A DNA stretch of 64,000 bases, taken from the NCBI GenBank assembly GCA_002633005.1, contig NMRA01000190.1, positions 248,001 to 312,000 of the forward strand, read 5' to 3'. A program made the position numbers and the translations under genes. Source of the stretch: Phoronis australis. Taxonomy: Eukaryota; Animalia; Phoronida. The notes under the pieces were generated by a model. That model was not told the DNA's origin. It saw only the letters and a program-made list of their open reading frames with translations, and did no database searches. Position 1 is the first letter of the stretch. Every line of letters starts with the position of its first letter. Below are positions 12,809 through 62,971 of the stretch, piece after piece.

Positions 12809-12920
12809 GAATAATTGTAGTGTTTCCATGGAATAATTGTAGTGTTTCCATGGAATAATTGTAGTGTTTCCATGGAATAATTGTAGTGTTTCCATGGAAT
12901 AATTGTAGTGTTTCCATGGA
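12809..12920. repeat. Minisatellite 5 x 22 bp (gaataattgtagtgtttccatg)
   Basis: Perfect tandem units with no spacers. Confidence 0.95.
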
Positions 12921-13704: not shown

Positions 13705-14051
13705 GTATGTGGAATGTAGTGATGGTAGTTGGACTGTTAGGAAGAATAATGACAATAACTTACACACTAGAGTAGACTGGAGGTCCAACAGTTAATGTTC
13801 AAGGCTTCTGGGCCACTGTGTTCTGCTAGTAATAAGTAAAGATCGAGATGTACACCTGTGTAAGTTCAGTACACTTGTTTGAAAGATTCATCTGTGAAAA
13901 TTGTTTAATTAGTTGTGAAGGCACATGTCAAGCAAGTCCTTAGGGAATTAATTTTTGAATTTTCTTCCTTAACACTTTACTGAGTTTTTGTTGAGAAGAT
14001 GTTTAAGTCAGTGGGTAAACGTCTGTATCTTAAGTTGCATTTCCATTGCAG

Positions 14052-14195
14052 GACATTCCTCTGTTGAGTATGTCAAATATCCTGTACCGTGCTGGTCGTT
14101 ATAATGATGCTATCGTGGTAACCAATATGGCGCTAGAGACCTCACCCAGCATAGTGCTAATTCACATCACCATGGCAAATATTTATGCAGCAAAG
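14052..14195 (+). CDS. TTC17: TTC17 TPR exon (DIPLLSMSNILYRAGRYNDAIVVTNMALETSPSIVLIHITMANIYAAK)
   Basis: ttgcAG/GTgaga, 144 nt, TPR pattern matching D.PL.S..NIL.....NDA. Confidence 0.93.
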
Positions 14196-14506
14196 GTGAG
14201 AGTGCTCTGATTTAACACCTAGTACATGAGTGCTTGTTTAAGTCTGATCTGTGCTATTATGTCGGATTTAGCTACTTGCCTGCTTACCTGAGAACAGCAC
14301 CGACTTAAAATAATAACTGACAATAAATCACATGAAGTTGCCAAACATTTGAGATTTTGTTGATTTTTGGTGGTGGGTTATAGTTAGAAATGGTTGAACA
14401 TCATTTTGGCAAAGTAATATCAGTTGTATGTAACAAGAATATGGCAGAAAATACAAAGTTTTAAATTGCCATGTCCACTAAGCTGGTGTGTGTTTGTGTT
14501 TTTTAG

Positions 14507-14671
14507 GGTGACTGGGAGAGGGCAGCACTGTTCTACGAGTCGACACTGGGCCTGCAAGCTTCCTTTGTTATCGCCAAGGATAAGCTGCGTGTTATCCAGT
14601 GTCATAGCTTGTTCAGTGGGAAGTCCAGGTTAGTGGATGGCCTTATACTGTCCAGCCCTCCCTTAGAGTGA
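14507..14671 (+). CDS. TTC17: TTC17 last coding exon (GDWERAALFYESTLGLQASFVIAKDKLRVIQCH...PLE*)
   Basis: ttttAG acceptor; YESTL.LQ..F..AK....IQCH motif; TGA at 14669-14671. A strong internal donor (AG/gttagt at 14629) could give an alternative end. Confidence 0.85.
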   Translation, partial: GDWERAALFYESTLGLQASFVIAKDKLRVIQCHSLFSGKSRLVDGLILSSPPLE

Positions 14672-19873: not shown

Positions 19874-19997
19874 CTAAGTACATCCTTTTTTAATCAGAAA
19901 GTCTAGTCTGGCTGCAAAACGGCGCCCTTTCCTGCTAACAACACGTGATGTGGGCCACTCTAAGATGTAACTTTCACCGGTGTCGGTAAGCATTGTT
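19874..19997 (-). CDS. C345C domain 2, terminal exon (TMLTDTGESYILEWP...RLDFLIKKGCT*)
   Basis: cAG phase-2 acceptor, EWP motif, C-terminal GC typical of C3/C4/C5; TAG at 19876-19874. Confidence 0.88.
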
Positions 19998-22900: not shown

Positions 22901-24594
22901 ATATTGAAATTGGTTTTCTGACACCGATACCTAATTCAAACTGCTCATCAGGTATTTTCAGGATTTGTTCGTTAAGATTTTCAATTCCTATTTATATCAA
23001 AACATTTGATTTTAGTTCGATATTTCAAGAAAACGATCTGTCAACTGCTCGCCACTTCGTGGATTTTTCTACCTCAAAGCAAAGCAAGTCTCATTTGGTA
23101 TGGCAAGACAGAGATGTAGTACATTTTTCCCCTTGTTTCGAAAATGTGACCGTGGCAAGCGACTTCAAGCTACTGACTGTGAGCGCATGTGCGCATTTAT
23201 CATAAGTGGAAAGAAATTAGAAACTCTGTGGTAACCACAGAGTTTTTCCTTCCTGCGTATTTCAAAAATCGTGAATTTTGTGATTTTTTTCTGGAAATTT
23301 CCTTACAGGGGAAAGTGAATTCTTCAACAAGACCTTGCGAGATGATACTTTCGCTAGGAATTGCTTAAAAGATATTTTTGACGAGCTTTCGCATTCCACG
23401 CCTCTTTGAAAAATAATGGCCAAATGGAATAATTAAATTGGGTCCGCTGGTTCGTGCGGTCTATTAGAGCCAGAGCAGACAGCGGGCTGTTTGCCTCATG
23501 TGAATCACACTTGAGCTGACACCTTAGGTCGCGGTATGAAAACACGGCCAATATTCAATAACATTGTCGCAAATTCATTCATCGTCATTCCTTGACGTGT
23601 TTGGTGAGCTCAGCTAACTTTCATTTCATGCGGCAGCCAGCTCACCGCATAGGTCTGCGTCTGCGGTGACCGTATGCGAGATACGAAGCAAGGTACGTGA
23701 TTATTTGCCCACTTCTTTTGATGTCACGGTGCTAACCTGATACTGCACGGCGGAAATCCGTCTGAGGTGTGTAAGTTCTGGACTGGTTTTCCACGTGCAA
23801 GACTACATACCTAGAATAAGGTTAGGTAACACCATGTTTGTCCCAATTACTCAGCTCATTTGGGATACCTTGTAAGTAGTCGGTCACTTTCCAGGACGCC
23901 AGCACGCTTTCTGGTAAAAATTCCAGTGAAACAGACTTTTACCTTGTGTATAAAGACTTACAAAATGGGAAAAATGTGAATAGAAATCACCATGATACCG
24001 CTAAGCCAAATTTTACATTATACTTCGAGTTCGATGAATAAATTCCGCTGAGGGCTTCGTAATCAGCATATACGTTAAACGACCACTAGCATCCCCAAAA
24101 AAGGCACGTGACATAGTCGAATGTTCAAAATTCGTGGTTCTTGCCATAATATCAAGATAAGTTTCGAATGTGCTGAGGAGAGATACACTGCATGATTAGT
24201 TGTTACCTGATCTCGTACTGCACGTAACTTTGCTCTTTCTACTCTGCATCGCCGGCCACTCCACAACATGGTTCTCATTGGTGACAGCAAACACAGCTCT
24301 AAAACGGAAGTCGAATCAGTTTACTTTTTGTTCATGTTATTCCACCACACAATTAACATAATAATAATAATAGTAATAATAATAAAATAATGATAACAGT
24401 AATAGTAATAATAATGATAATAATAATAATGATAATAATAATAATGATGATAATAATGATAATAATGATGATAATGATAATAATGATAATAATAATGATG
24501 ATAATGATAATAATGATAATAATAATGATGATAATAATAATAATGATAATAATAATGATAATAATAATGATGATGATAATGATAATAATGATAC

Positions 24595-24636
<42 letters not shown>

Positions 24637-27600
24637 TAATAATATCGAAATTTGAAGGACTGATTTCAATGCCCAATCTCACCACAACAATGCCTGTAAC
24701 AGCATTGCTTTAGTTCGATGATATTTTTAATGATGAATGTTCAGTAAAAATCCATAATGTTATACCTTTCCAGTCCATCGGCATCTTTAGGGTATATTCC
24801 ATCAGGCCCAGTAACAAGGTAAGTTTTGTTGACTTCAAAAACCTTCCAGGTGTAATATGAGCAAGACGATTGTACCAAAAAATGTAGCACCGAATTCACG
24901 CAAACGAACGTGGATCCTGAAAAGCAGTAGTTCGACATGCAACTGGAATATGCATGTGCTTAATTGGTCACCTGACATTCCGTTAGGAAATTAGTTACCT
25001 AGCCAACGGAGTTGTGGGCTATTTGATTGGTGGTGTTTATTTGTCGTTTATTTCACGGTCACAACCTTCAATGTACCCTTCCAGTGCCCGAATGCTAAAA
25101 TTAATACTATTGACATTTCGTCTATTGCCAATTCAAGTTAAACTGCCACCTAACCTAAGACAAATTAAATGAAGGCCACTAAGTGCCATAAAGTTGACCC
25201 CAAGGTTTTATACACTCATATTATAAGTGATCGATTCTGGGGTAGGGAAGAACTGGCAGTTCGCTGTTGTTTTATGAAAAGCTCAAAATGTTGGTTAAAC
25301 CCGGCTGGTCACCTTATGTTCCCAAAATAGTTTCACACAATTAGAAATGCTCGTTTGATTAAATTGGCTCAATCAACAACCTCTGTAGAAGTCTTTGATA
25401 ACAACATATTAACATAAGAATAAGAAGGAAACAGTTAGAAGTCTCCTCTGTCTTGGAGGTAGGAAAATGTTGTTATATTAACTTTGTTGGACTGATCCTA
25501 GACTGAATTCACGTCGGAAAATATCGCATCTACGGATACTCCTAAAAATTATCAAACTTTCAGCTGCCGCAGTTGTAGCCCATGGCACAGAAGTAACACT
25601 TTGTTGGTATTGGAATGCTGATTACAGTTACGGAATAACTTGAAAAAGCAAGGCACTAAAGAAAACGTGAGAATTTCCGGTGGCCCGAAAATGAAGATGT
25701 TGCAGCATTGTGGGTAAACGCTGCGACATTCGAAAGTCGCTGAGTAGTCGGGGACCGTCCTACTGTATCAGTATAAAACTACTCTAGAAACTTAAACAGA
25801 GTGTCAAGGCTATAGTTTCGCTTTCGTAACATACATACCGTGTTTTAAAGTAGACACAAGCCGCCCTTCTGCAACGTCATAGCTCGCTCGTGCAGTTATG
25901 TTAATAATTTGCACTACGTAAGCTGAAAAAACGCGATAAAACAACGTTAAGCAGGAAATGACACTCAGGAAAAGAGGCAATCCTTATCTCAAAGTGAACG
26001 CACGTTTCAGAACCTGAACGAAAATTTCAACATGCAAGTCTTTCGGCAGGAGTATTTTTAATGTTTACTAAGTTCCAGGGACTAGCGAAGTCTGCATACA
26101 TTTATGAATACATACAGAGACGACTTCACGAAAATACAATAGTAGGCGTTTTCTGGCAATTTTGGTTGATCAAAATTTGTTATCAAAGATTATTTGAATT
26201 CATATCAATCATATGAATTCAAACGAATGGTACTGCACGATATAAATGGTCGATAAGAATTCGACTCAACAGGACAAACATCAATAAGTAGGAAAAATAA
26301 TTAAAGATCTAGACGGATTATATCTGTGGCAAAAAGTGGCTCAGTTATGAACAGGGAAGATGGTGGGTATAAGTTATATAAAATTTGGAACAGCCTCATA
26401 ACCACGCCACCTAGTGTCCAATAACTTCGGAAAATGGCTGCTGAGAGGAGCCGAAACTATCAAGGAACTAATGCTTTTCTGGTTGTGAAAATAAGAAACA
26501 ACCAATTTGAGTTGAAAATTTGCCGTGCGGCGACGTCGGATTCCAGAATGCGATATGGGTCGCCGGATTCTGCCGCGCTATTGGCAAAAAGTGATCCGGT
26601 ACAGCCGTCCAGCTTGGCTGTTCAGAAATCAAGGAAAATGTCGTTTTCAGAGGCAAATTCTCTCTGTACAGAAGGAGGAACCCCCTCCTGACCTTCTCCC
26701 CCCCCCCCATTCGGCGTTCGTGCCTCTACAATCGTGCTTTGCGCGACTGTCTACGAGACAAAATGTTGCCCCGTCCCCCCATATAATGCCCTCAATCCGC
26801 CACTGCATTTTAATGCCTACAAGGTTGCGTTCCTCAAAGTTAGTCACCTGTGATACATTTAAGGAGAGAATTTGACAGAAATCGTGAGTTTACGAACATT
26901 TTTCTCATAATTCAGCATTCCAGTGCCACCGATTAATCACTTCCGTGGTCACTATTTTGCATGAAAAAACCGCTGAAAATTGGTGTTACGGAACGCAATC
27001 AAGGCGAACTGTATTTTCTTTCCTCATATACCGATTAACGACTTGCGCTTCTTGAAAATCGTTGAATATTAGCTGAAAGCATTTGACCGTGAGTGCAGGA
27101 AAACCATGCAGGTGTGTAAGCCCATTTTCTAGGTATACAGCGAGGAAGCTTAAGAGAGGTAATGGACCCTTAAAACTTACCCACTTCTGCCATATCACAG
27201 ATATGGAGAATGAATTCCAATTCATTTAGCAGTCCTGGTTGTGTCTCGCGTGTGCATTCCGTCCTTTTCGTCAATTTACAAAAGTGGGGACATTTTTCTG
27301 CAGGTATAACAAGAGCAACGTAGAGCGTTGAAATGTGCCCACGAATGCACCGCAAAAGGTATGCTTCTAGAGTTATTAATTAGTATCATGAAAATAGCCA
27401 CTATACGGCACAGAATATTTTGAACCAATCTGAAAATGGGAAGGCGTCGCCGTCTCTGAAAGTCATTTGCCAAATGTGTCAACGCTAAAAAAATGTAGCT
27501 AGGGAGCACCACAGTGCCGGTTGGACCTGTCAGAAAATTCACGTCAGTAGAAGCACATCTGCCAATTTTCATAATGACCCTCTGCGCGCTTTGGCAGATA

Positions 27601-30600
27601 CAGAAGCAGACGGCAAAAACAGACTCAAAAATAATTGAAATGTCCACTAATTGATGCAGATTACGTCGAAACCATCATAAAATGGAAAGGTGTTGTCGTC
27701 TTCATCAAGGAACTCTAAAGTTACTCGGGCAAACGTAAAAACAAAATTACCAGTAGGGAGCACAGCTTCAGTTCAACTTGTCTGAAACTCGTCGTCATCT
27801 GTTGGCATCTCCATAGGAACACATCCGCTAAATTTCACAAACATCTTGCAAAGGGTAAACATGTTACAGCCAAGGACCCAAAAAACAAAATGGCCACTAG
27901 GAGGTGCCAGAGTAGTCGAAAACCACCGACAATCAACGCCTGCATGCAGCCTCGGTCTTCGCTCCTTCAAGCGGTTTGGTGGATGGAGGAGTTGACGTCA
28001 AAAAACGTACTAAAAATCCCCCAGGTCACATTCGTTTAAAAATGAGAAAGGGTCGTTGTCACCTTAACAGAAACCTATTTGCAAAATTCCACGATAATAA
28101 AATCGGCAACTATATGTCGCATCTATCTGAAAAGGGGAACCTGTATCGCCTCTTTAACGGAAACCTGTTCATTACATTTCAAAAAAATCCATATGAAGGT
28201 GCTTCAAAGATACAGAAGACAACGAAAAAAAAATGAAATTGTAACTAAGGGGCCACAGCGGTAGTCAGATCCATCCAAATGTTGTCGCCGTCCGTTGTCA
28301 ACTTCATATAAACACATTTGCCAAAATTAATAAAGACCCTGCCGAAAGTTTAGGAGATACAGCTATAGATGCAAAAATAAATTTCCACTAGGAGGCGCCA
28401 CATTAGTCGGAGTTACTCGAAAATCATCACCAGCCATCCTGTTCGCACCAGAAACATGCAAGCCAATTTTCATACTTATTCTTATAGTGGCTAGGTAGAT
28501 AGAAGGGCTGACGCCAAAAAAAGATAAGAAAACTGTAAAAATGGCTACTACATGGCACTAAATACGTCGAATTCATCCGAAAACCAGAACATGTCATCTA
28601 TTTACCAAATTTCCTAAAAATCCATCCAGGAACTTCAAAGAACCAGAGGAAAACGGAAAATTGCAAATAGGAGGCACAGCGTTCGTCGGAAACGTACGAA
28701 AGACGTCGTCGTCTGTTGTCAACTAAGTTCATATAAATACTTTTACCACATTTAATAAAGATCCTGATGAGGGTTTACGAGATGCAACCATGGACGCAAA
28801 AATCAAAATTGCAACTAGGAGGCGCCACATTAGTCACTTATGTCAGTTTTCACAATCATTCTTAAAATGTTTTTGGTTAATAGAAGGACGGACGCCAAAA
28901 AACAGACTCGAAGACGGTAAAGTAGCGTTAACAACCTCCGAAGATACAAAGGTAAAAGAAAAAAGTGAATTGCCATTAGGGGGTACACTGGTAGTCTAAT
29001 CCATCAAAAGATCGCTCATGCCGTCCGAATCAAAGGGTTTTGGAGATAGAATATCGAGCGCCGGACGGACGGACGGACGGACGGACGGACGGACGGACGG
29101 ACGGACGGACGGACGGGTGGCATTTTTGTGTATTTTTGTATATTTTCAACAACTGATGAATTGTTCTGTCGTTTATTAGTTTATCAAGGATTTCAGTTTC
29201 AAGTTCAACAGAATATCATGCCAGCTTCGCGCATCCCAACATAAGAAAAATATGAAATAATTCGTGAAGCTAAAAGTTCTGTGGATATGGTAATTTCCAC
29301 TGAATTATTCCTCAACAAAAACAGCGCCTACACTAAAAGTTTCAAATAATATCAAATTATGACAAAGGCTTTGTAGGACACTAGCAAAATGTCCAAATTG
29401 GCTGAACAGAAACCTTGTCAACAACACACTTCAACTTTTATAAAAGGAATTCTTACAAACTGAAAAATTCTCAATAACAGGTGCACAAATCTCACCTTCA
29501 AGGCACAGGCATTGTTTTGAAGGCTTGTCACAAATAAACTTGAGCAACTCGCTTCCTCTTCGCGGGTGGTAAAATGTGATACACTTATTATCTGAAAGAA
29601 AGCGTTATTACCGTTGCATCTATTTCTCAAATGCAGCGGCTACATAATGAGATAAGCTAGAAAGATAACTATCTCAGTATTGTTTTAGGATTAGACCATG
29701 AAGATTGGTTCCCAAATGTACGCCACGGTCCTGGGCGTATCTGCAGAGCATTTCATTATATTCGCCACGCCCACTGGGCGTATCCATAAAGATGGACCTG
29801 CCTGCACAAAACCAGACTCCGGTAGTGACCTTTGATTATCAGTCATCAGTTGCCATTGGATTTATACACTAATTTGTCAATATTCAACAGGCCTTTATAA
29901 TTTGACGTTTACCCGGATTTTTCTCTTCTTTCACTTTGACGGCCACGGGTTGCGTGTTTCCAATTTTTTGTATTTGACTGATGTGGAATTCCAGACTGAC
30001 GGGAGACTTGTGGGTAATCTGCGAACAATGATGGGATTGAAAATACATCTCTATACTTTAAAGTTCCTTTCTGACTAATTTCCTCCAACAATCAAGAAAT
30101 GGATCTTGAGAATAGTTGTTTGTGGTAAAACACAAACCAGTATATACAAAACTTATTTTGAAATCCTATTTTTAACATGACGTCGTTTCATCCATAGAAA
30201 CGAATTCTAAAGTAGATTTTTTACTTACTTAACTTATGGATACGTGGAAGTGAACCAACAAAATTGACACCACAGTTTAAATGACAAAGCTGAACTTTAG
30301 TTTTTATAGACTTTTAAGTTAATGGAAAAAATACACAAATGTCTGTAATTGATAAAACCTTCCAGTCATTTAGGTGACACCTTTCGTAGATGAAATTCAA
30401 TCTGTGTTCCGAACTGGTTCAAAACATTCTCTGTAGAGTTCTAGCCATATATATCGCGAGATTGAAGTTGGCATTACAAGGCTACAGCCAATGACCTAAA
30501 TGTGTGTGTGCGTGTGCGCGTGCGCGTGCGCGTGCGTGTCTGTGAGTGAGTGTGTAGCTCATTAGCTCTTACCTTGTAATGCCAACTTCGATCTTTTCGC

Positions 30601-33600
30601 AGCCGTTTTTCAACCGAATTGCATTAGAAAGCCCTTCGTCAGTTCTTCATGGTGTATGATTTAAGCAGAAGAAAACAATAACTAACCATCATTTCGCTTA
30701 CCCGACAGTCAGGTTTAAAAATAGTTTTGCTGCCACTTTACGGAAATTAACAGGTTGTAATAGTAATCAAACAGGAAATGGGCCAGGGGATTCAAATGAC
30801 TGCTTAAACCAGCAGAGAGATAATTTCAATGAATTAAAAGATTTTATAATATGGATCTCTCACAGTTGCTGTGAAGAATTTACTCAGGCATTCAATCCAA
30901 AATTATCCATATTTATATATTATTTGGAACTTTGGTACCACTTGATACAGTTCTTCAGTACACACTCAGGATGCAGCGACATTTACAAAAATATGATAAA
31001 AATAATTACTCCAACTACCTAATATCCAAAATTTGCAGATAAAGGCTTTCTGGTAGATAACATTGAGCAAACATATATTGTAAAGATTTGAAATGTACTG
31101 TGGATAGATCATTACAAAGGCTGCAGTGTAGGACTTATAGTAGTTTGTAAATAATCTCATTTCATCAGAAAGTAAAAGTTATTGATCCTTATACATCTAG
31201 TGTGTTCTACCATAAACAAGAGACAGTGGAACAAATTTTTACGATTGTTATATCGCTTTTAAAGAAACTTGAAATAAAATTACAATTCTAATGACAAAGG
31301 GACAAAGGAACACCTGTTCCATAGTTGGCAAAATTCGAGAATGAAAAAATGAGACAACTGGATTGAAAAGCAGGAGCTCAGGACAGAAAGCGGGGCATCT
31401 AGTTCTGTGCCATAACGCAAGGGCGAAATGTTCGCTGCAACACAAAGACGTGTACCCCAGCGTTTTTTGTCGAACGAGATACGTTACACCAAAACGCGCG
31501 ACAGCCATTTTTGTATTTTTAAGTCGAATAGGCAATTGCAGGTGCCTAAAAACATGAAACGTCACGTTTATTTTTTCACGTCGACCGGGAAAATGGTGGT
31601 ATTTCGCGTGCGAAATTACAATTTATAGTATATACGATAATATTTTGACGGTTTGGCGGGATGGCGGGGAGAATTCAAAAAGTGTGTATTTGGGCAACAG
31701 GTAAACATTGCACAAATGAATTATTATAGAAACAATTGAAAACAGTAATAATTTATGCAAACACAAACACACACACTTAGCTACGCAAATACGAGTAGTT
31801 TTTCGAAAGTTACGTAAATACAACAGTCAGTGGGGCCTAAACTTTTCATTTATGATTGCACAACAGGTACTTAGAAACCAAAAGTCACTGTCTTCTTTCC
31901 GTACAATAGTGTAACATTATTTTAATACCCAAAAATGTTTTCTTGAAAAATTCCTAGCCTGCAGTTTGACAGGGTATCGAAAGTGGTTTTAAGACTGGAG
32001 ATATCAGAGGCCAGACCATTCCCCGTATCCGGCCTGGACCACAAGTCAGTGCGTATAAAGAATGACCAATGTAGGCCCTAATTATCTGGTTAGTTGACTA
32101 ATTTTGTTGGGAAATCGCTTGTTGTCAAGAACCATAGCTCAAGAGTCTCGCTTGATGAACAAAAACGTCAAACTGAAAATAAAGCAATGAAATTGGATAA
32201 AAACTCATTCGAGCAGATTGCCGGAAATTCACAGTGGAAACTCTCGCAGCTAGTCTCGGTGTTCGTAAGCACATAATAGTATACATTGGTCACGCGCGAG
32301 AGTTGGCATTCTAGGGCTAGAGTTTTATGGTTAAAGTGTAATTTGCAAGGTCCAAGTATGTTAAATTGCAATAATATCTTCAAGGTATTGCTATTTGGAT
32401 GTATTTTATTCAAATCATCGCATTATTGTATCTTTAGTTATTTAAAAAAAGCGAAAATAAGAAAATGCGCTAAAAGTTGACCTTTGACACCGTGACATGG
32501 TGTTGGGGAACACAAACCAGATCATATCCCACAATGCAGTTCACTGCTATTATATCACAGTACACGAAGAACAAAGACCGTTCAACCTTGGCGTGTTTTA
32601 GCCATGGTGCATCGGTGTGTGTGTGCTAACTATTTTAACACCACCCAGGTGGAAGGCATGAGCCCATTTAAATTCTAAAAAGACAANTTCCAGAACATCG
32701 TAAAAGACTGTATAAATACCCAGGCACGGGTTTGCGACAGGTAGATGAAGTTACACAGTTTGTGGGTTAAAGTTACAGTTGAGCTGCAGTGAAGAGCATC
32801 AGAGTTACACCGTTATTCAATAGAGAGCCAGCTATAGACAGCAGGTAACATTTGCTGAAGGTGTCTCAGAAGTTCATCATAAGTCAAGGCTTCGCAGCAC
32901 TGGCTGGAGCATAGAACAGAAGTTACGTCGGACTTAGACTTTTGAAAGAACGGCCGAGATTTATAAAGTGATAAACTCAATCCAGTCTTCAGTCTATCGT
33001 CGCATCGAGAGCTGTTAGCGCCTGCGCTCAATCACACACCGGGAAAATGTGACGTACACACCGTAGGTAAATATAAAGTCGGATGTAAATAAACACTCGG
33101 GTGTAATCACTACTAACATCACTAAAAGTCTGAAATTCAGTATTACTCTCCCACGTCACAAATGCGGAATACATATTTAGTCAAGTAATCACAGTCATGT
33201 GATAATTTATAGAAATTATCTTGATAACTAAGAGTTATTTGTATACTCTCAGAAACTGGAATTTTTGTGAGATTTGGTGATTTAGCTGTGTGGAGCGTTA
33301 GACCGAATTTCTCAAAATAGTTGTGTGAACTATAAGACCAAATTTCTGTAGCCTTGCGTCACTTTTTATGGAAAAGACCCCTTCACACAGTCGATTGTTA
33401 ACAAAATATGAAGAATCTGCATAAAAACTGCAAACAAATTTTACCGACCAACTCTGGCTGGATTTTGACAGAGTGGTTTGTCTATGCCAACTCTCCTCTG
33501 TAAGTGCTAATCCTAACCAACCACGATATTACAGCACTAAAAGTCATCTTAACAGAAGAACAGATTTCAAAAGTATATCGAGAACTGTTTTGGTTTAAAA

Positions 33601-36600
33601 AAACGTTTTAACTCACGTGGACTAGCTACTAGCATCGTTCGATATACACGCTGGCCCGGGGCCAGTGGATTTGCGGCCGGACCAGTAACTTTTGATGAGC
33701 ACAATTCAGATTACCCAACGGGCTGCAGAGACTCAGACGTTGATGTTTTTCCGGTTGAAACAGTCTTGTCTGGCTCGGAGTAAACATGTGTTGTTGCCAG
33801 TGCAGGTTCACATTATTGAGCGGCATTTACAAAATACGGGGTTTTTACCTTGTGATGGTATGACGTGCGTGACTAAATACAGTTTGGGTTATTCAGAGGA
33901 CAGAAAAACTATATTACTGATGAAACGTGTTTTGCAAAAATATATTGGTTGAAGCCAGTTCCCGGCTTTTATTTCGTATCCACAGCTTAGGTGGTGTTCG
34001 CAAGCGCATGCGCATTTAGTGCACAGGAAAGAAATTGAGAAAAACGTAGTAAAGATGCTAAAACCTGGGCCTCCAAAGTGGCAGCCCTGCCAGCAAATTT
34101 TCAGATTAACTGGGCAGGCGGGCCAGCACACTTATTTGCTGAAGTTCGAACACTAGCTACTAGCTTAATGTTGGATTGGTTGTACTTGATGGACTTATTC
34201 ATTACCGCCGGATCACGTCTGATTGTTTTCCGTTGACGATTTCCCGCTTGAAAGCCAATCAGATGTCTCGGCCGGATGACGCGGCGGAACTCAGCTGGTC
34301 AGATTTACTTCGATAAATCTTTCATACCATTTTGGCCATTTACTACACCATAAATTGGTATGCTTTCGTGTTTTTTCTATCTCGTCCAATATTAACAANG
34401 ACTGTATAAATACCCAGGCACGGGTTTGTGACAGGTTGGATTGGTTGTGCTTGATGGACTTAGCCATTACCGCCGGATCACGTCTGATTGTTTTCCGTTG
34501 ACGATTTCCCGCTTGAAAGCCAATCAGATGTCTCGACCGGATGACGCGGCGGAACTCAGGTGGTCAGATTTACTTCAATAAATCTTTCATACCATTTTGG
34601 CCATTTACTACACCATAAATTGGTATGCTTTCGTGTTTTTTCTATCTCGTCCAATATTAACAACACAGATGTTTCCCGCCATACACCAACACAAGGACAT
34701 ACAATGTCTCCTCTGCCTGAAGTTGCAAGTTGCAGAGATATAGATTGACGTTGTTTTGAATTTTGCTTTCAAAAAAGAACATGAATAAGCACACGTCTTA
34801 ACAAGGAGGTTGTTCAGATCTGTCCCTGAATGTGTATACAGTATGGTATTTTGTGGTTTTACATACACATGCATAGTCATTACCTTTGTCCGGTTGAGCA
34901 AATGGTGTTTTTTGGTTTGGCATGTTTGTTACTGGCATAGTTTTCGATTTCAGCGACTTTCATTTAATTAGGTGCAAAATCTGCCTTTTCACTCCCATTA
35001 GTCGCATACGATCCAGAATCGAACAATCGAGTGCATTATATTGTGGTCAAAAGTCGAACAAGACTTCCTCTGAGTCGAAGTAACGGCTTTTAGCTCGAAA
35101 AGTCCTTTCGGAGCACCTGTCTTTACTCCTCTGTTAATCGCATGCAACAGACATACAAAAAGTTTTGTATGAAAAGTCGGAGCGTGTGAGACTGGGCTTC
35201 ACGCGACGCGATGTCTTGCTTATGGGTAGTACACTTCTCGTTGTTGTCTTCATGCGATATAAACAATGGGGCTATAATTAAATGGTTCAGTCGTTCTAGA
35301 GTTTCCAGTTCGTTAAAAGCAAAACTTTCGTACTTGGTGGAAAAGCAGCAAAGGTTGTATTTTCAACCATGAAGATAGGAGCTAGGGCACGTAACCAATA
35401 AAAAACGACAGAATAAAATTAAATAAATAAAATAATGAACATCTTACCTGATGTCTACAGTCAGCTTAAAGGTGTAGAGACTACGTGATGATCGCTTTGG
35501 TCTTGAAGACCCCAGCTCAGAGCTAGTCTTGCCACATTTTGCCACACCACTACACATGAAAGCAAATAATATGCACGGAGCAGGTGACAATCAAGTTCAC
35601 TGGTGTTGACACACAACATTGTTCGATCAACAGGTTCAATGTACATGTATTCAAGTGGCTGTCAGCTGGATCAAAATTTTTGCTTAACACCGAGTGAAGC
35701 ACAAAGAGACTAGGAAAGGTCAACACAAATTTGTCTTTTTAAGACTCAAAATTTTTACAAAGCATAAGATATCATTATAGCTTGAAAAAGACGCATGATT
35801 TTCTCCTTTTTGTTTCATTCAACATTTGGGAGTTGTCCAACTTTTTATCATGGTCTAAAAATGTTTGGAAGGAAACTAACCACTGTCACTTCTCCCAACT
35901 TAAATTTGTGTCATACCAATGTTTTGTAAACTCTATCTTAATTTAATGAACGCCACCCGATGAACGTAAAAAACGCGTCTTGATGGGCTCAACGCAGGCG
36001 CTCTTTGGATGACCAGCAACTTGGTTACCTTTCAAAGTTCTGCGGAAAATTCCACTCTCTCTCTAAAGCAGCCTTAACACTTGTATTGAAGCGACAACGC
36101 TTGGAGTTTGCAATTGTGTTGTACTTCAAATTCACAGACATCTGGCCAACACCCACACCTTGCGTCGAGATGTTGTATTGTGTGCCATAGGCAAGCTGAA
36201 GAATGAACAACAGTGAGTATACACATTCGACACGCGATAGAGGCTTAAATCTCACTACCCTCTGACACAGCTCCACCTGTACTGAAAAGTGGCCCAGTGG
36301 AAACAGTGATGAACGACACACGGTATTCCGCATGTAGGCATGCATGCTTAGTCGGAAGTTTATCGATCACATCGCCACCATTTGCACACGCTTTCTACGC
36401 ACTTTGATTTTGTTTACTTCGATCTCTGCAACTACTCAAGTCAAAGTCAGTATCCACACTAAGTACGTAACAGTGAACTGAAAGGAGTTTCCCAGATTTC
36501 AACCAATGGGAATGACTGAATGTTATGACGTCGGTTTCATTACTTCAACCAATGAGAAGCCATGATAAACAACAATCCACAGTGCTATCTTTCGTAGCAA

Positions 36601-45600: not shown

Positions 45601-48600
45601 AGAAAACATTCATTAGAAGAAATGAAAGTCAGTGATAAATGTAACAAACAAGCGAACAATTTGCGACCCTATTAAAAGGAAATAAACGATTATTGATCTG
45701 CCCACCTGATAGAATTAAGTCGGCTGCTTTTCCTGGTGATTCATGAGTAAGTCTGCCGGTCTTCTTCAGGTATAACGTTGCATAAGTTGTCGAAGCTAAT
45801 TTTGTGATCACTTGCAGCCCGTTGTCTGACGGCAGGTGTTGCAGGTTGTAGACTCTATCTATGGCATGGCGAACAGAATTCCCCAGTACAGTTCCTGTAA
45901 AATTATTTGTATAGTCAAGAGAGTGATGGTGTACCCACCATGCAGTTCCATAATCTAATAAAGTCAATGTAAGTCCCTAGAAGAGTCTTAACACTACAAG
46001 CAATCCACAGTGAGGTGTTACTCCTTGGGACGTAAGGTAAAGTGCGTATTTCTTAGGCATGGTAATTTTGACTCCGGACTCTTCGGAGGGCTCTTTGACT
46101 ATTGCTGCATCTCTTATTAAATGCGTTTGGGCATGGTCAAACTTGTGTGCTGTAAGGGTTGAAATTATCTGCAAGCTAGCAGATGAAAATTGTGGGGGAT
46201 TGAATTTGGTGGCGACCTATGACGGAGCAGTTGGTGTATATACATGTAGGTGGAGCTACACTCACAATTTCTGTCTTAAGGTAGTACTGCGTGGGCTAAT
46301 ATCGAAAAACACATTTTGCCTGAATTTCAGAAATTGAATTGTGAACCGTTGAATGCAAGTCCAGTCGTTCTTACCTATGACACTGACGGTTGAATGGACT
46401 GAGTCGGGCACAGCCTCCACTGGTGGGACAAGATCAATATGATGGGATTCAGCAGGTCTTGTTGTGGTTACATGGGGCAACGACTCTGTTCTGAGATTGG
46501 CTACATTGTGGACTAGAAGCTCGCCGTTGGGGTCAAGTATGATGTTATATGTGTCGACAACGGGTTCTCCCTCCGGCTACAATGAAAGATAAAATTCTAG
46601 CTTCCGGAAGCTACTTCACGTTAAAAGGGCAAACAATAATCTAAAGTCACGCAAACCAAAGTAGATGAAATATCATTTCAAACGATGCACTTTCAACATG
46701 TTCTCGATTTCTAACAGAAATTTATCGCAGGCCGTCGGAGGTTTCAAGTCGGCATGACAATATGAGGATTGAAATTTACCAAATGGTTTTATAACGATAT
46801 CATCGCCGGACATTTGCCGTTAGGAAGGAAAGGTAAACTCAAAATATATTTTCATCTGCAGTTTTCCTTGAGAATCCGACAGCCACAAAACAATCATTAT
46901 GTGAGGAACACTACATTTTTCAAAAAGTGAACAATTAACAAGCACACTAATGAACATTACACAAGCACTTGTTCTTACAATAACATTGAGCCATTTCAGT
47001 ACTCGGTCAGACAAATCCAGGCTTATGGATGTTGCAATTACTTCTATCGCGTGTTCTCCTATTTCTAGAGGTGCGATAGGGAAAGAAATGACTTCGCTGT
47101 CGTGGCTGGGTAGCCATACTTGCAGGTAATCGCTTGGTTCACCTGCTTTTAACTTGGCACAAACTCCAAGTCCTACTTGGATATGAACTGAAACCTAAAA
47201 ATGATTTTTATCAGAATTATAGTGAAAACACATTTTCAAGTAAACAGAAACTCTAAACGTCAGCTCATGTCGACGCCTATCAGCGGTAAAACTAAATACA
47301 GTAAACTTTACTTAAAACAATTTCTGACATCAAAACGAGGGGAGTGTTTTATTTGACAGTTAATTACATTGCTGCGTGGCTATGACGTCACTGGAATCAG
47401 ACAACAGCCAAAAACTCAAAGGCAAGACTGTAGTGTTCGAATAATTATTCAAAGTTGGATTAATTAAAAGTAACTTACTGGCAAAATTTTGTTTGCATAA
47501 TTGAATAGTGTGACCTTGAGTTCAACTTGTTCCTGTCGTATTATAGAAAACGGTAGTGACAGCTGAATGAAAAATTCAGTGAAAACTGTAGTGTTTACAG
47601 GCTTGGCCACGCACAAACTTTGTCTTCTATTGACACCAATGGCTTGTACACTCCAAGTTGTGATGGAGTCTGGTGCTGTCGCCCGATAGGTGGCCGCTCC
47701 GTCGGCACTATAAAAAATCGACTCGTCTCATTATTGAAGTACGGCTCAGACACTTAAAGGTATTTATGTGATGATTATCACAAGATCAGAAGCACTACTG
47801 CACAAACAGACTGAGGTTGTCAGACTTATACCTAGGCAAACACAATAGAAGGGTCCCCTCAACTACGTAATGCGCGCGCATGCAGGCCGACGGCTAAAAT
47901 GAGGCTGGGGCTTGTTTTATCAAAGTTCGAGACCAGACCGGTCGTAGCTAATGAGATCGTTGGCAGGTTACTGCGCAGAGGGCTGCATTTTTGCATGAAA
48001 AAAAACTATTCTTAACGTAAACTTGACCGTAATAATAATAACACCCAAAATGAACGTCCACCTCATAAACCATGGTGATGAATTGTTTGGAAATCATGAT
48101 GCGACCATTTGCTCTAAGACCGTCAGTACGACGTCTTTTGTCAAGTAAATTAACAATAGTAAAGTACCGAGTATATTCTTGAAGTTGAAACAAGGTACAA
48201 ATAATTGCAATCTCGTTCATTCCCACATAACCTCTAATTTTGGTATATAACTACCCGCTAAATCATTGCACCTGGCAGGAAATAAAGTCATTCTTAGCGA
48301 TGAAACGTCTAACAGTCAACTACAGAGACAAATGTGCCAACGCATGGCCCGTCTTTTGTGACTGTGGTGGAATGACGTCACTGGACGAGCCGTCTATTAG
48401 AATGCGCTGTTAGTCAACTGTTGCTATGGCCAAAACATGTTCCGCTTTCATGTATTGTGTTAGAGCATATTTTCACCTTTTGGTGCTCAATTCTTCAAAA
48501 AGGAAGTCGAAACAAATGTGCAATTGGTGCATCGTGGTGATCCCTTAACTGGTGCCTGCAAAGTGCCTTGATCACGTGACATGTAGCACTTCAAACGAAT

Positions 48601-51600
48601 GTAATAATTTAGACCAGATGTTGGCGTAACTTGTGTACCATTTTATTTCTCTCAGTGTTGAAACTAAGTAATTCCACGAGTGGTGATCTTAACCCCAACC
48701 AAATTCTTACTCCATGTTGCTGTACTGTAAAAAATAGAGAAAGAAAGCCTCATAGCCTTGATGATTCCATAGCCCCCCTCCCCCCGTCCCCACCGTTACA
48801 TACAGAACTATTGAGGAATTCATTTCAACTACTCTACCGAGAGGCAGACTTAAAAGAATCTCCACCATAAACACAGCAATTTGAACGGATACTCGATTAC
48901 TCGAAAAACATTTCTTGTAACTGGAAAAGATGCTCTGGGATTGACCATCTGAGATACGAAAGACTCCAGGCTTAGACCCAATGTATAAACACCTAGGGGA
49001 AGCTCATGGAATATCGCATTAGACAGACAATTAATGTTTTGACTAAAGTGCACAGCATTCTCACGTTCTAAATCTTGGGTACATCAGATGTTTGCATGGT
49101 ATTTGGCAGGCCTCACAGTGCACGTTCGCCTACTTATTCCGTAGATAACTTTGAAAGAAACGACTTTAATTACGCCCACGCAGATAAACGAATATCCATT
49201 GAACTGTTGAGAAACACGTGTAGGAGAAACGATTCATACCCGGTATCAACTTCGTCGAATATCCAAACCTCATCAAAATTATGTCGCGTGGGAATTATGC
49301 TTTTAATTTCTTCAAGCTTCGGATTGGTTTCAAAGACGTAAGCAACCGATACACTTCGTGTAGGCTCAGTACGTTTTGGAGGATCCAATGGACGATGTGC
49401 TGGATAATTTGGTTGATGATGCGAAGAATATCGTTTCATTTGGCAGCATTTCAAGTACATGGTCCTACAAGAAGCCTTGACGCCCCGCAGTTCATGACCA
49501 ATTCCTTTGATACAAGGCATAAAGAGAGTCCACTGACCCCCGAGCCGGCAGCACGTCTCATCCGTCAAAGTCTCGTTGTCAGCGAGAGACTTTTTCTGCC
49601 TGCCATCCGTTCGCTTTTTTCGTGGTGTCGGCGAATGATGATAGCATTCGTAACGTGGCCTGGTCGAGAGTGGAAAGTTGTCTGCATTTGTCAGTACACT
49701 AAATCCTGTGGTCTGAAAAGTAACGACCAAACATCACAATAAGTCCCTGAATGAAGAAGAAGCCTGCCGAATACAGTTTAAAAGTGAGTGCTGGGAAATT
49801 ATTAAAAACAGAATAAAAAGAAACATGTAACTAAAAATGATATCACTGCACATCAGCGGAAGGAATACTTCGATTCCCTATCAAATTTAGTTGTTCATTA
49901 TTGGACGAAGAATTTGCCGCCCAGTAACGAATTGCATGACAGACAATGCAACCAAATTTTTGATAATAACACGGATCTGAATAAACCAATAATAGAAAAC
50001 GAAGTCAACAATACATTTAAATGTATTAACAATAACAAGGCCACTGGCATAGATGGAGTAGATACACAAAAAGGCAAGTCATGACGATTTAGGCATATCG
50101 TTTTAAATATATTAAACAAATTATTTTTCAATAAAACTAATAGCAGGCTGGTTGAGTGGGTGACCGATGCAAAAAGTCTGTATGAAGAGAAGGCTGCATT
50201 TAAAAAATCATACAGCACAATTGACCAGATATTTACCCTAAATGCACTGGTATAGAAATACTTAAGTAAGAAAAAGGGTAAATGATATGCTACTTTTGTA
50301 GATTTTAAAAAGACGTTTGGTAGTGTAAAATTCAGATTCTTATTCTATAAACTTATCAGTGCTGGTTTTCATGGTAACATATTAAAAGTAGTCCAATCAA
50401 TGTACGAAAAATTAGAATCTTGTGTACGAGTGGATAATACTCACAGAACACGCTTCTTTAAAGAGGAAATTGCAAGGTCCAAACCAATCTTAACAACGAT
50501 ATGGTCCAAATTCTTGTTTCTTATAAATTGCTATATTCTTAATATTAACTGAATTGTTCGTCGATATACAAAGTTATTTACATATATAGTGCCGCGGTGT
50601 TGTAACGCCATTGCTGTAACGGAAAAACAGAAACGGCGCCATTTTCGTTCGTTACACATGGGTGACGTGGTGTACGGGAACACAAAGGAAGCAAGTGTAT
50701 CCAAGTGAGCAGCAGCGTAGATGAGGAATACTTTGAAAGATACTGGGATGGACAAGTGGCCTTTTCAGATAATTCCGACCTTTCGGACGTGGAGGAGGAG
50801 TTGATAGAACCCATAGGAACAATTTCAGCCGATTTCATAAAGGTGGTTTAACAAAACCAGGTTTAAGACTTAAACCTGGGCCCGGTTTCTAATCTTTGTA
50901 CTCGAAACGAACTCGAAACTATTTTTGGCAATTTCTCTGCTCCTTTTGTGCGAACTTAAGATAATTGGTTATCAGACTGTGCTCGAATACATTATAAGTT
51001 TATGCATAGGAGTTTCTAGTTCAAGTTCGCCCTTGAAGGCCCTTATATTCGTGCTACAAACTCGAGTAAAAACTCGAAATTTCGAGTTCAAACTCGAACT
51101 TATTGCTTTAATATTGGGTTTACAAACTGTGAACTAAGGGCAATAAATTATCTACGTAAGTTATTGTGTACTCGAGCATAGAATAATAGACACTTATCTT
51201 GAGTTCGCCCAAAAGTAGAGTAGAAAATGCCAAACCTAATTTCGAGTTCCATTTCGAGTAAAAAGATTGGAGACCGGGCCCTGGNGACGTGGTGTACGGG
51301 AACACAAAGGAAGCAAGTGTATCCAAGTGAGTACAGCAGCGTAGATGAGGAATACTTTGAAAGATACTGGGATGGACAAGTGGCCTTTTCAGATGATTCC
51401 GACCTTTCGGACGTGGAGGAGGAGGAGTTGATAGAACCCACAGGAACAATTTCAGCCGATTTCATAAAGGTGGTTTAACAAAACCAGGTTTAAGACTTAA
51501 ACCTGGTCTAATTTTAGACCTAACTTGTATTTCACCAACATAGTGGTATAAACGTCTGAAAGCCTGGCTCCCATTCAGTAATGCTAGGACCTCGCTAAAA

Positions 51601-54600
51601 AGCAAGACTTCGCGAGATTACGTGAGATATTGCCATGTATTTTAAATGAGCACGTGACTTTGATTAGATTTTAGCTAGGTCATAGCGTAGGTCCTAGCGT
51701 CTACTGTACGCACGCCTGATTTTGTTAGACCAGGGAACCGGTTTAGTAAAAGCAGGTTTAAAGTATCTAAGCCACCCTGCTGCGTCGATCTGGATTAACC
51801 CAACAAAGAAACTATTGAAGTGCTTCAATGAAACCTTGATCACGTGGGTATGCAATGGCACGCACTAGTATAATCAGTGCAGACACTTGCGAAAAAGGTC
51901 TAAAAGCTTTTCTCATGAGGAAAAATGTAATGTCTGTGCCCAACACACGTACACATTAAAGTACATGCTCACGATTAGCCGCAACATGATACATGTCCGA
52001 ATTAATTTCCGTGCCATTTTAGTGTTTATTTTTCGCTGCCAAGGGGGGCCAAGACCGCTCCCCGGCGACATTAAATCGGAGACCAATGGATGTGGAACTC
52101 AGAAAAATTAGAACATGGTGTCTTCAGTCAAACACGTAGCGCTTACGACGGCGACACCCTGCTCGACCAGTCGTATTCTCAGGAATCCGTAGGACACCAT
52201 CCAGCACGTACTGGTCTACACATAGGCGGATCCAAGGGGGTCAAGGCACCGGACCCCCTTAGTGATATCAATTCTATAACTTTCAAATTGTTGACTTGGT
52301 CCCCCCTTTAAAAAATTCCTTGACCGACCCTCCCCCTTGAAAATCGTGGATCCGCTCCTTCTACGTTTGATCTTGTGTCGTAAAACTGCGCGAATAGTGG
52401 CAGAATTACATACAGCAGCGTAGTTTAATGTGCACAAATCACACGTCGTGCAAACAAATCGGCCATTTCATATACTGTAAGTTTATCAATCCCAATAGGC
52501 TTTACGCACCCTAATTTCCGGACATGCGCAATCGTTAAACCCATTCGGTTGCAACTCCGCTATTCCACGACAAGCTAGGTTGTTAGAGAACTAAATTACG
52601 TTGGATTTAGGAATCTTTTAGTTTGCAGTAGCATTGGGTGGATATATGTTTGAGCCCGAGTATAGTGAGGCAAAATGAAGACAGCTGTTGAGAGGGATGA
52701 GGCAGGGACTGAGGACAGACGTGGTGGGACATTTTGGTACAAATGCAAGGTGTGCACTCAATGGAATGCCTATGCTGTTCTCACTGGATGGTGACCTGAG
52801 CACCCAAATCGCTTACATCCTGCCGTGTGACTCCCTCGCGCCACACCTGGCACCTTTTAAATAGCTCCAATACTTTAGTCAAGTCCACAATAAACTTAGC
52901 CTGTATTCACTACCACTACTCAACATCGCTGCAGGGTTGCTTAGAGTCGGACAACACCAACACAGAGCAAATCAGTGTTAGTTCCCGGAATTGCACGCTC
53001 TGGGGTACGTTCAGAGGCGTGGGTGACAGTAGATGAAGCGCCTCCAGTCACTGTACAGGCCATATCTCGCTAGGCCACTCGCTTCAAAAATGCACTTCTC
53101 GGGGGGGTGGCGAAGGGGCACTTCTGGGAATCAACAACAACAGTATGGCACCCTTCTTCAGGGGTCAATTTGGAGGAACCTTCACCGATTCTACGTACAA
53201 TTACCTCTTTCGTAATCCAACGACAGCAAATGCTTGCCACACACTCGGTAATTCTCTACTGTTTTGTACGTTGTGTGGACGATAACACTGCGTTCGTCAC
53301 ACGAACGAGCCAAATACGGCGGAGCGTGTCATCTTTCGGAAAGCGGTATACACCGCGGTAGGCAGCAACCGTGCGGCATGTTGACTGACTCGTAAACAAA
53401 CGCAAACTACAACCGAACTTATCGCAACCGAGATAAAACAATGACTAGAAAGTTCACGTAGTTAGACCATATGAAAACAAATGGCAGGAAATTCATAACC
53501 CCCTAAACGTCACATCCGGAGTAAAGCACGACTAATTAATAGAATTAATAGAAGCCGTTATCAACTGAAAAATATGTCTGCCAGGGATAAACAACGAACG
53601 GTATTTTTACTAAAATTGACATGAAAATGGTTGCTTTCTCCTTTAAATTCAAGTGACGTTCATGAAGATGTACTTCATTTTAATCAAAACACAGATCCAG
53701 AGCATGTATTTAAGCCAGTATGGTTATAGCGCTTAACTTTAAATCAGAACAGGAGACTGCAATTTTAGAACATGCACAGACATAGTTAAATTTAAGCGAG
53801 ATTTATGTTTTAGTTTCAGGCCAGAATAGGAGATGGAGATTTTAGAACTTGTACAGATGCGCTAACATTAAGACGGCGTTTCTGTTACTTACATTTGTGC
53901 ATTTAGTTAGATTTTACTGAAATTGTTACAATATACCGCGCTACTTGCAGTTGTTTTATTATCTAAACGAGCTTATAAAATCGTGACTTTGAACCAAAAT
54001 AGAAAAACTTAAATTTTCAGGAGAACCGGACATCATTTACAAAAAGGGATAGCGGTCGTCTACGGGATCACCGCTCGAAGTTGGTGAACAGTCTTTCCAA
54101 AACTTCATTTTTGTAGCGTTTCGAGCAGACAGATCATTTATCAGATGCGAGTAAACAGGTTAGCATCTGTCAAAAATCAATAGCCAGCTTACCGTTGTCC
54201 AGAAAATCGTCTACCTGACAATTAAAAATATTAACATGCCCTCAGAAATGGCTTTGGCATTATATCCAGATCTCATTCACTTCCTAGCATACCTTCACTT
54301 GGACCGAGCTCAGAGGAGTAAGAGACACCTGATACTTTCTGGATTCTGGATTGGATGATTCGTATCCCACAAATATACTCTCTGGGATGCGCTCGAATCC
54401 ATTCACCTCTTCATATTAAAAGACAATTGGTTCCTTACCCAAAATGCCATGTCGCTGCTGTTGCCACCAGTACTTCCGCATCCGGTATCAAATGACATCA
54501 TTGCGTTGTACAGCACAGTCGGCGCTAATTGGTCTCCTTTTCCCAACAAGTGAACAGCCTGATCTACGGCGAGTAATGCGACTCGAGTGTGTGGCTTTGC

Positions 54601-57600
54601 CGCGATTTTAATCGTCACGAAATCCTGAGGTCTGTACAATTCTTTGTCAAACTCTACTGTCACCTTGAATAGGATATAACGCTTTATAGTGTTGTGTACA
54701 TAATCATTCAGAACATGGTGTTTACAACATTAACAAATTAATTTGCATAACTTAAGAGAAAGATTATTTTCAAGAAGTGATCACTTAAAAGGTAGCCCTT
54801 CTCTCAAAAAATATTTCAGACAAGCGACTAGAAACTGAATTTGTGACGCTCGTTATACAGCGATCTTGCCTGTGGTGCGTTTCGTAGAGTAAGTGCGTCG
54901 CTAATGAAGCGAGACTAAGTGTGACAGGTGAGTGTTTCTCGAGAAAACTTAAGACCTTGCTACCATACACACATATAATGTACAATTGATTGGTTAGTGA
55001 GACTGGAATATTGAATTAGGGGGAAAGAATGTACAGTTTTCGGTCCCTGTGACTATGCCTCTTAATGATTTCGGATACTATCCTCAAAAACCCTAGTCCA
55101 TACCCCATCAATATCGAGTCTTGTCCACACACGCGCCTCAACTGCTTCATACTCGGTGACCAAATTCCATACTCTGGGACCAAATTAAAAGACCCGTTCC
55201 TGGGTGTGGGTGAGAATTCAAAATTATTTTCGACTGAAGGTGGGCATATAGAACATTTAACAGATTTCTGACAAGAACCAAGTTAAAGAAGTCATCCTTA
55301 AAAACTGTTTAAATCACAAATATATCTTGAACAATAATCACTTGGTAGTGGTCATTATTTGTTATCCACAAACCTCGTTTTCACAGCCGTCTATTACGTC
55401 AATGAATATTGAATCAGCGACAACTTCGTTTTCGTAGACGTAGAAGACCAGAAGACGAAAACCAGGCGACATTGAAGAATCCACGTGTAGTTCAAGTGTG
55501 TAATTGGAATAAATGTTATTGCTAATGGAATAATTGTATAAATTGTCCGAGACGGTTTTAACAAGATAAAACATCTTTGATACTTTCTCTGGTTTGTTGA
55601 AAAGGATATCAACTTGCACGTCCGATCCAATCTGAAACAATATTGAAAACGTGCTGCACACCTATTGTAGTTCCAAGGATATGTAGACTAATATGTAAGC
55701 AAGTATTAAGGAACATGTAAAATTTATTGTTCAAACTAATTCTCCATAAGTACCAGCTCGTACTTAAAGACGGATTCGCCGTAATAAGTTCGCCAAAAAG
55801 AATTGCACTTCCGGGAATTTTTGTTCTGTGTACCCCGTTACAACGTGCTTCTGAGCTCGCTCATCCATTTTTTCCCGAAACACCGTTCACCATGAACGCT
55901 TTTTTGTCTCGCTTTATCAATCCAACCACATCCTAGACGCCGAGAACGCGTCCATGCAAAGCACAAAATAGTGAGTAAAACTTGAAGGAAAAATGTTTTG
56001 CGTTTAAGAGTGCCCCTTAAGAGGACTAGGTTCGAGGAGGAACTTTTGATTGTGGGTGTTATTTCGGAGAAGTTCATTTAATTTTTGGCACTATTGTTCG
56101 TTGTAGTTTCTGGTCAAATGCCGTGGTGCACTTTTGTCTCGTATGCTCCCTTAAATGTTTCTCTATACTTCTTGAAGTTGTCCCGGGCGCATTAACAGAA
56201 ATTCCTGCCATGGATAGTTCCGACAAGTGCTGTTAGGCCACGCCAGCCATAGCTACAGTTGTGAAGTCCCACAACCACAAAGCAAACAGGGCGGAAGTTC
56301 CCCTGCACACGTACGAATACTATAACAAAGGGTTCTTCTTTTCGATGTGTTCCCATGGACATTTCGACATCGAATCGCAAAATCGCAAAGCTTCCTGGCA
56401 AAAAATAGACTGCTACATCAGAGGTTTGTCCATGATTCTAAATCTTTGATCTCATTCCTGGATTACTGGCCCGTTCATGGTTTCATCAATAAACAATATC
56501 ATCGAGAAATGTGATTTCCCGAATCTTCGCGGTCTGCTGACAGAGCTGAACCCCAATATTTATACAGGATACAAAATATTTAGTGCACAATGGGTACCTT
56601 CCACATTCCCCCATAACTGCTGAGTTAGAACAAGACCTGTTTAATCGTTTAGAAAACTTGATATGCACAGTTTCTCTGCCATAACACAAAGAGAGGTTAA
56701 TCAGGACATCTCGTATTTTTACAATTAGCAGAGGCTGATTTATTTAGCTTGACTAAACTACGTTTTAGTAGCTTTGATGCGTAATTTTTCTAAATTAGAG
56801 GAGCACAGAACCATAGCGCTTGCAAACGATAAGGAGTTAATCTTTGGCACTTGCTGTCTGAGGTACATTGCTATTAATAGGGCTTTTTGTTGACAATTGA
56901 TTCAAGAATTGTCATGCAACCCTGACAGGCCTCAACAGTTAAAAACCAAAAAACTACGTAAATCCGTCTCAAGTTTTCGCCGCAGATAGGACGAAGTAAG
57001 CTGAAGGTTTTACCGCGCAAATCAATAGGTTCCAATCTACGAAACAGTAAGTTATGAGGAATGCCATTGAATGCTTTTGAGAAACCAATAAACGCGAAAT
57101 AAAAACTACCCTATGTACTCAAATATTTATCGCACAAAGCTTGAACCATAAACACTCGTTTTGTGGCAGAGTATATCTTTTTATTAAGATAAAGAGAGAC
57201 TCAAAAAGTTTACCGTTAATTTCAGCCCAAAAATTTAGTCAAAAATTTTCCAAAAGCCAACACCAGGGACATTCCTGCATAGTTATTATCATTTTTGCCA
57301 TTAGCTTGTTTGTGAAATGGAGTAAGCACTGCGTCACACTAAGTTTGGGGATAACACCTAGAATAAAAAATTCCATTAAATAGTTAATGCAACATTGGCG
57401 CTATCGTTACTTAGTGCACTTAGGCATTTTAAAAACTCACCTCATGATAACTATCGGCCTTGTCATCAGGCAATTGTTCAATAGTAACACATATTTCAGA
57501 TAACAGAAAGCACTGCTAAGATCAGATTGGTACATATCACTTATTATTATAACTGTCACTTTGCAGTCTACCGTAGTCACTCTAACACTGTCGTAGCGTT

Positions 57601-62971: not shown

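Follow-up and report, generated by a model that had tools for sequence, protein, structure and literature searches.

A divergent C3-like gene of Phoronis australis without a thioester motif carries two tandem C345C domains

Loss of the thioester has occurred repeatedly among C3-like proteins and has been described in cnidarians, protostomes, and invertebrate deuterostomes (PMC8960428). One such protein, C3-like-3 of the razor clam Sinonovacula constricta, releases a chemotactic a-fragment, while its b-fragment, the sole thioester-less invertebrate one tested, is not haemolytic; the same text states the role of such b-fragments as open and gives three chains as the older state in C3-like proteins (PMC8960428). 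The C345C domain is a hub at which C3b and C4b hold proteases, the free C-terminus chelating the MIDAS metal of factor B or C2 (PMC12847986), at which properdin binds (PMC4451739), and through which the first FIM of C7 takes hold of C5b (PMC8526713). The gene described here resembles razor-clam C3-like-3 in its C3-family domains, its beta/alpha site, its six-Cys anaphylatoxin domain, and a thioester lost independently of C5, but the clam protein has two chains and the standard 13 domains, whereas this gene has an alpha/gamma-type RPKR site and two C345C domains (PMC8960428). It is like vertebrate C5 in lacking the thioester and keeping the anaphylatoxin and C345C domains, but C5 has two chains and one C345C. 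Vertebrate C4 and cyclostome three-chain C3 share with it a second basic site inside MG8 but keep the thioester and have one C345C.

We analyzed a stretch of 64,000 nucleotides of P. australis contig NMRA01000190.1 (hereafter the window, in whose coordinates all positions are given), the composition of which is that of animal DNA (~40% GC, CpG undepleted). It holds a real, expressed, fast-evolving C3-like gene that runs on the minus strand from 62971 to a stop codon at 19874 in 27 exons, every one GT-AG. The gene was traced with Pfam searches of single exons (35 pieces), tblastn with toad C3, and a profile built from 40 full-length homologues, which orders 20 open reading frames collinearly; the 27 exon borders were set by hand on the sequence. 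The resulting model comprises 4500 coding nucleotides and is free of internal stops; it falls into two blocks, of 1165 and 334 residues, each in frame. By a naive estimate the chance of 27 open pieces at these lengths is 1e-31.6, a figure that ignores the selection of the exons by homology. Single exons matched Pfam MG3, MG4, A2M_BRD, A2M (E 1.4e-23), TED (four exons) and, weakly, NTR, and an AATAAA lies at 19760, 114 nt past the true stop.

Exons 1 to 6 (62971-62875, 59911-59675, 59246-59064, 58290-58189, 55631-55374, and 54663-54439, minus strand, as are all exons below) cover MG3 to MG6a and the linker of the beta chain. The first of these begins within MG3, placing the signal peptide, MG1, and MG2 upstream, outside the window; exon 4 (58290-58189), which has no match in the 40-homologue profile, is included for its phase and length. 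Exon 7 (49240..49712) encodes the linker, an RKKR beta/alpha site, an anaphylatoxin-like domain, a candidate Arg-Ser activation site, and alpha'-NT. MG6b, MG7, and the first CUB half follow in exons 8 to 10 (47707-47479, 47194-46979, and 46576-46375), the start of TED with DNGLQ at the thioester site in exon 11 (45706..45894), and the rest of TED with the start of the second CUB half in exons 12 to 16 (43385-43310, 40058-39899, 39589-39352, 37592-37414, and 36934-36773). Exons 17 and 18 (36195-36029 and 35549-35448) hold the end of CUB, the start of MG8, and an insert with an RPKR alpha/gamma-type site, and exons 19 and 20 (30018-29913 and 29591-29496) hold the end of MG8 and the anchor region. 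The order MG-LNK-ANA-MG-CUB-TED-CUB-MG8, with MG1 and MG2 beyond the window and the middle of MG8 not found, is complement-type. The C3/C4/C5-type architecture of the original prediction is borne out by this order, by the six-Cys domain past a basic site, and by C345C (Pfam and homologue profiles), and the presence of both an anaphylatoxin domain and C345C does set the gene apart from A2M, CD109, and iTEP, as proposed there.

Within exon 7, RKKR is followed by a CC-x11-C-x14-C-x6-CC domain, and RKKR and all six Cys align with homologues. Pfam ANATO did not match this domain, which scores 7.1 bits on an anaphylatoxin profile, a value reached by none of 500 shuffles (maximum, 6.6). An AlphaFold model of exon 7 on 20 homologue rows has confident helices in the region (mean pLDDT 67.7), and anaphylatoxins (C5a, C4, and C3a) rank top in a Foldseek search with it, all at E of at least 0.13 and with a model itself built on homologue rows. 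The anaphylatoxin-like domain is divergent. A candidate Arg-Ser cut past it would give a predicted 85-residue a-fragment. The RPKR of exon 18 lies in the MG8 insert, where homologues have their second basic site, and is a predicted processing site; the beta/alpha and alpha/gamma basic sites of the suggested three-chain form are therefore both present at homologous positions, with cleavage predicted at each. Most Cys of toad C3 are matched in the gene, among them those that form the interchain links of C3.

The thioester position, which lies inside a single exon, reads DNGLQ and not GCGEQ, and the catalytic His position, ~100 residues downstream in exon 13, aligns to Asn. A six-frame scan of the window found no GCGEQ or C[GA]EQ-type motif; its single GCGxQ match is intronic, on the plus strand, and unrelated. 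The scan also ruled out an alternative second exon carrying a thioester. Canonical opsonic C3 and C4 have both GCGEQ and the catalytic His, neither of which this gene has. Covalent opsonization by the usual chemistry would thus be precluded, and on this point, as on loss of the thioester itself, the original prediction holds. Despite loss of the motif, TED retains 38 to 40% identity to three homologues that bear the thioester, two of which share 53% with each other. A PDB sequence search with exon 11 returned nothing below E 0.02, with A2ML1 at E 0.3.

The further notion of thioester loss as a peculiarity of C5, or as an invertebrate rarity, is not supported. Many independent losses are described in PMC8960428, and among 57 aligned homologues 10 lack CxEQ, 4 of them C5-type (2 named C5) and 6 not. 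The six are five named invertebrate records, from Patella, Haliotis, Ornithodoros, Saccoglossus, and Anneissia, and one unnamed; the Anneissia record lacks the thioester region, which may be a gene-model error. In the Anneissia and Saccoglossus C3-like records the first half of TED, thioester included, is missing or distorted, through either shared degeneration or gene-model errors. The C3-like proteins of Patella vulgata, Haliotis asinina, Ornithodoros turicata, and Saccoglossus kowalevskii have lost the motif as our gene has but have one NTR each. Those of Patella and Haliotis are like it in having basic sites in the MG8 insert and unlike it in having no six-Cys domain.

What distinguishes the P. 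australis gene is its C-terminal end. A profile from 38 homologue C-termini detects two NTR/C345C domains, scoring 45.5 and 45.7 bits, so that the claim of a doubled domain was correct. Copy 1 is encoded by exons 21 to 23 (27297-27181, 25922-25839, and 24916-24766) and spans profile positions 18-129 of 153, without the C-terminal helix and last Cys. After a hybrid linker exon predicted from sequence, exon 24 (24207..24298), copy 2 would be encoded by exons 25 to 27 (22285-22202, 21913-21763, and 19997-19874, the last with the stop); it spans positions 23-145 of 153 and ends in a C3-like Gly-Cys-x terminus. Pfam NTR matched exon 26 alone, under its cut-off. Exon 22 pairs with exon 25 (84 nt and phases 1-1 in each) and exon 23 with exon 26 (151 nt and phases 1-2 in each), and the two pairs share 34 of 76 residues. 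BLASTN of the copy-1 half against the copy-2 half found no likeness except around exons. Over 77 codons the copies differ at pS 0.63 and pN 0.35 (dS 1.39, dN 0.47), a divergence that makes the duplication old. Their dN/dS of ~0.34 has a wide bootstrap range (0-0.65), with pN below pS in 2000 of 2000 resamples. The tandem duplication is old, and frames and splice sites are kept in both copies.

We found no counterpart to this arrangement. Among 82 homologue records of at least 900 residues, counting isoforms and partials, one C345C is present in 60 and none in 22, and not one record has two. No report of a doubled C345C was found in the literature, in a search that is weak on subscription papers, and a word-based search with exon 23 gave three candidates, none at E≤10, which is weak evidence. 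Supplementary Figure 2A of PMC8960428, which gives per-species architectures, may bear on the novelty of the doubling. The original prediction had regarded the whole combination as unusual. The doubled C345C is indeed the new part, but loss of the thioester and three-chain processing have already been described in invertebrates (PMC8960428).

The makeup of exon 24 is consistent with an unequal crossover that joined the former last exon to the tail of exon 21. In its 5′ portion the exon is paralogous to exon 27. The 3′ portion shows no DNA likeness to exon 21 but places a Cys and a phase-1 donor where exon 21 has them at its end, and for copy 2 this Cys falls on the first Cys of the profile. 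Breakpoints in the old last exon and in the old exon 21 would have generated the hybrid, and a crossover through the old last exon would have left copy 1 without its terminal helix. Both C345C copies are likely, from the exon structure, to lie in one polypeptide. We lean, with confidence slightly better than even, toward a C3-family gene whose tandem C345C exons yield one secreted protein containing both domains, predicted to consist of three disulfide-linked chains and to act through a chemotactic a-fragment and noncovalent docking. Furin-type processing at RKKR and RPKR would produce the beta, alpha, and gamma chains, as the sites and conserved Cys suggest. A protease of the host, for instance the convertase of a paralogue with a thioester, might then cut at an Arg past the six-Cys domain to liberate an a-fragment of ~85 residues, in the way that razor-clam C3-like-3 releases its own, and the b-fragment would presumably stay unattached or loosely bound. 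Copy 2 alone would have a free C-terminus, through which C3b and C4b chelate the MIDAS metal, and copy 1 would then serve as spacer and additional binding surface, with the docking point shifted by one domain and convertase formation altered. More speculatively, and in our judgment at fairly long odds, the distal copy might use its free C-terminus to grip a factor B-type protease at a point one domain removed from the usual one, and the proximal copy might bind a second partner, making the protein a thioester-independent, fluid-phase convertase platform or decoy, possibly splice-switched between one- and two-domain forms. A natural two-C345C protein kept under selection would offer a test of how fixed the docking geometry is and, in a protein without a thioester, of C3-like action without covalent attachment. 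The arrangement is so far known from one gene in one invertebrate, which limits its reach.

Alternatively, the two C345C exon sets might be alternative modules, splicing selecting copy 1, copy 2, or a hybrid to give single-C345C isoforms with different docking surfaces. If so, complement would here offer an example of docking domains selected by splicing. The skipping forms 21-25-26-27, 21-22-23-27, and 21-22-26-27 are all in frame, and each gives a single complete domain that has both terminal Cys and scores 49.5 to 51.5 bits, at least as high as the tandem copies. Read through its donor, exon 24 reaches a stop four codons on. However, that donor is good (at 7.6 bits it exceeds the 95th percentile of GT sites), the splice sites of exons 24 to 26 are ordinary to strong, and no poly(A) signal is near: from the read-through stop to the next AATAAA is 1.55 kb, versus 114 nt from the true stop. 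The 3′ Cys of exon 24, moreover, fits copy 2, and read depth on copy 1 is like that of constitutive exons. We therefore regard a purely alternative use of the two exon sets as unlikely, although tandem and skipped forms may coexist. In the intron between exons 23 and 24 lies an (ATA)n-type microsatellite of 287 nt (24358-24644).

The gene is transcribed, on read evidence that spans 24720-44700, upstream of exons 24 to 27. From three raw-read runs and a contig set (X4), the latter only guessed to be RNA, we used ~18 to 19% each, at a likeness of 90. In six exon bins, hand-picked as repeat-free from 30, first-mate depth falls on the plus strand, with 0 to 0.03 on the other, a pattern consistent with minus-strand RNA if the libraries are stranded in the common way. 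Of the intron bins, one is empty and two are at or below 0.21. Summed depth per exon base is 3.1 to 10.2, from few reads. Exon 23, in copy 1, is at 5.5, within the range of upstream exons, so copy 1 is not rarely used. One X4 contig, the sole contig across exon 22, contains an exact join of exon 21 to exon 22 and continues 34 nt into intron 22 (25805-25839). This tail could be nascent RNA or a retained intron halting the frame within a few codons. A second X4 contig covers exon 23 and is preceded by 25 unplaced bases. No junction of the gene was among the 15 of 77 joints listed, read placement being swamped by repeats. Stranded depth on exons and the one exon 21-22 join, in a set only guessed to be RNA, thus point to a spliced transcript.

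We asked where the gene falls among its relatives. Exon 8 searched against 1.84 billion representatives gave 1391 matches; among the 150 of these listed, the best identity was 54% and there was no close orthologue. The spliced model is ~30 to 32% identical to C3-like proteins of the hemichordate Ptychodera flava (XP_070581805.1) and the brachiopod Lingula anatina (XP_013420336.1) and to an unnamed C3. The Ptychodera and Lingula proteins, the best sequence matches, are alike in domain order but keep GCGEQ and the His, have one NTR, and show no supported sister relationship to our gene. Before tree building we omitted 4 rows that were tandem or odd, followed by 21 that were partial or redundant. 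In a 33-row tree (LG+G4) the gene has a long branch and joins the C3-like rows of invertebrates (82/96), where no sister is supported; it lies outside a vertebrate C3/C4/C5 clade (100/100), and A2M/CD109 is split off at 100/99. Its terminal branch is the longest in the tree (1.38 versus a median of 0.7). AU tests on 20 rows, all three weakened by a site-homogeneous model and long branches, rejected a grouping with C5 (p=0.028) and left unrejected groupings with two A2M/CD109 outgroup rows (p=0.069) and with a gastropod thioester-less group (p=0.22). An origin separate from vertebrate C5, as first suggested, is thus supported by both the tree and the AU test. Placement among complement proteins is favored by the free tree, but a position beside the A2M/CD109 rows is not rejected.

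The model is incomplete in MG8. Twenty-eight phase-compatible, stop-free exons had been predicted; 27 GT-AG exons without a stop stand, but a 28th is unconfirmed and the frame does not close between exon 18 (end at 35448, phase 2) and exon 19 (start at 30018, phase 0). Some 55 residues of MG8 are expected in the gap (30019..35447), where we found no convincing exon. A local profile over the interval returned nothing for the missing exon, and the best of 1215 scored stop-free one- or two-exon bridges reached 34.4 bits, versus 24.9 for exon 19 alone and 47 to 135 in 39 homologues. Scoring of three candidate exons (31545-31314, 33129-33040, and 30430-30381) left none convincing. Single Ns at 32687, 34399, 41283, and 51285 adjoin duplicated flanks that are 95 to 99% identical, at spacings of 265, 620-790, and 1694 nt, and these sites resemble places where scaffolding has joined allelic contig ends. 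Since two of the joins (34399 and 32687) lie inside the gap, the MG8 exon was probably lost at an assembly join. Gene models that cross these N joins may lose exons.

The same gap could be read as decay, with the MG8 exon truly lost, the frame broken past exon 18, and relaxed selection on a dying paralogue behind both the lost thioester and the doubled exons. The failure of all 1215 bridge paths would fit, as would the longest terminal branch in the tree, low expression, and the lack of a close relative among the exon 8 matches listed or for exon 23. Against this, 4500 nt are free of stops and frameshifts, the structural Cys are mostly kept, the exons past the break are open and transcribed with pN below pS, and the scaffold-type joins with duplicated flanks fall in the very interval concerned, so we consider decay improbable. 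An independently evolved equivalent of C5, in which the C345C of the b-fragment would start a MACPF pore with C6/C7-like FIM-domain partners, seems similarly doubtful: absence of the thioester and a kept anaphylatoxin domain recall C5, and an additional C345C could provide another site of the kind that the first FIM of C7 binds on C5b (PMC8526713), but nothing is inherited from C5, to judge by the rejected grouping, the thioester-less razor-clam C3-like-3b is not haemolytic (PMC8960428), and the window contains no partner gene.

Tail to tail with the C3-like gene, on the plus strand at 747-14602, are exons of a TTC17-like tetratricopeptide-repeat gene, 40 to 59% identical to two matches, one named TTC17-like, from oyster. 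Three further stretches resemble parts of mobile elements: a stop-interrupted one at 53070-53450 (minus strand) resembling the THAP zinc finger of a DNA transposon, another stop-interrupted one at 44060-44490 (plus strand) resembling the helix-turn-helix of a pogo/Tc5-type transposase, and a short one at 56877-57110 (minus strand) resembling a LINE reverse-transcriptase remnant.
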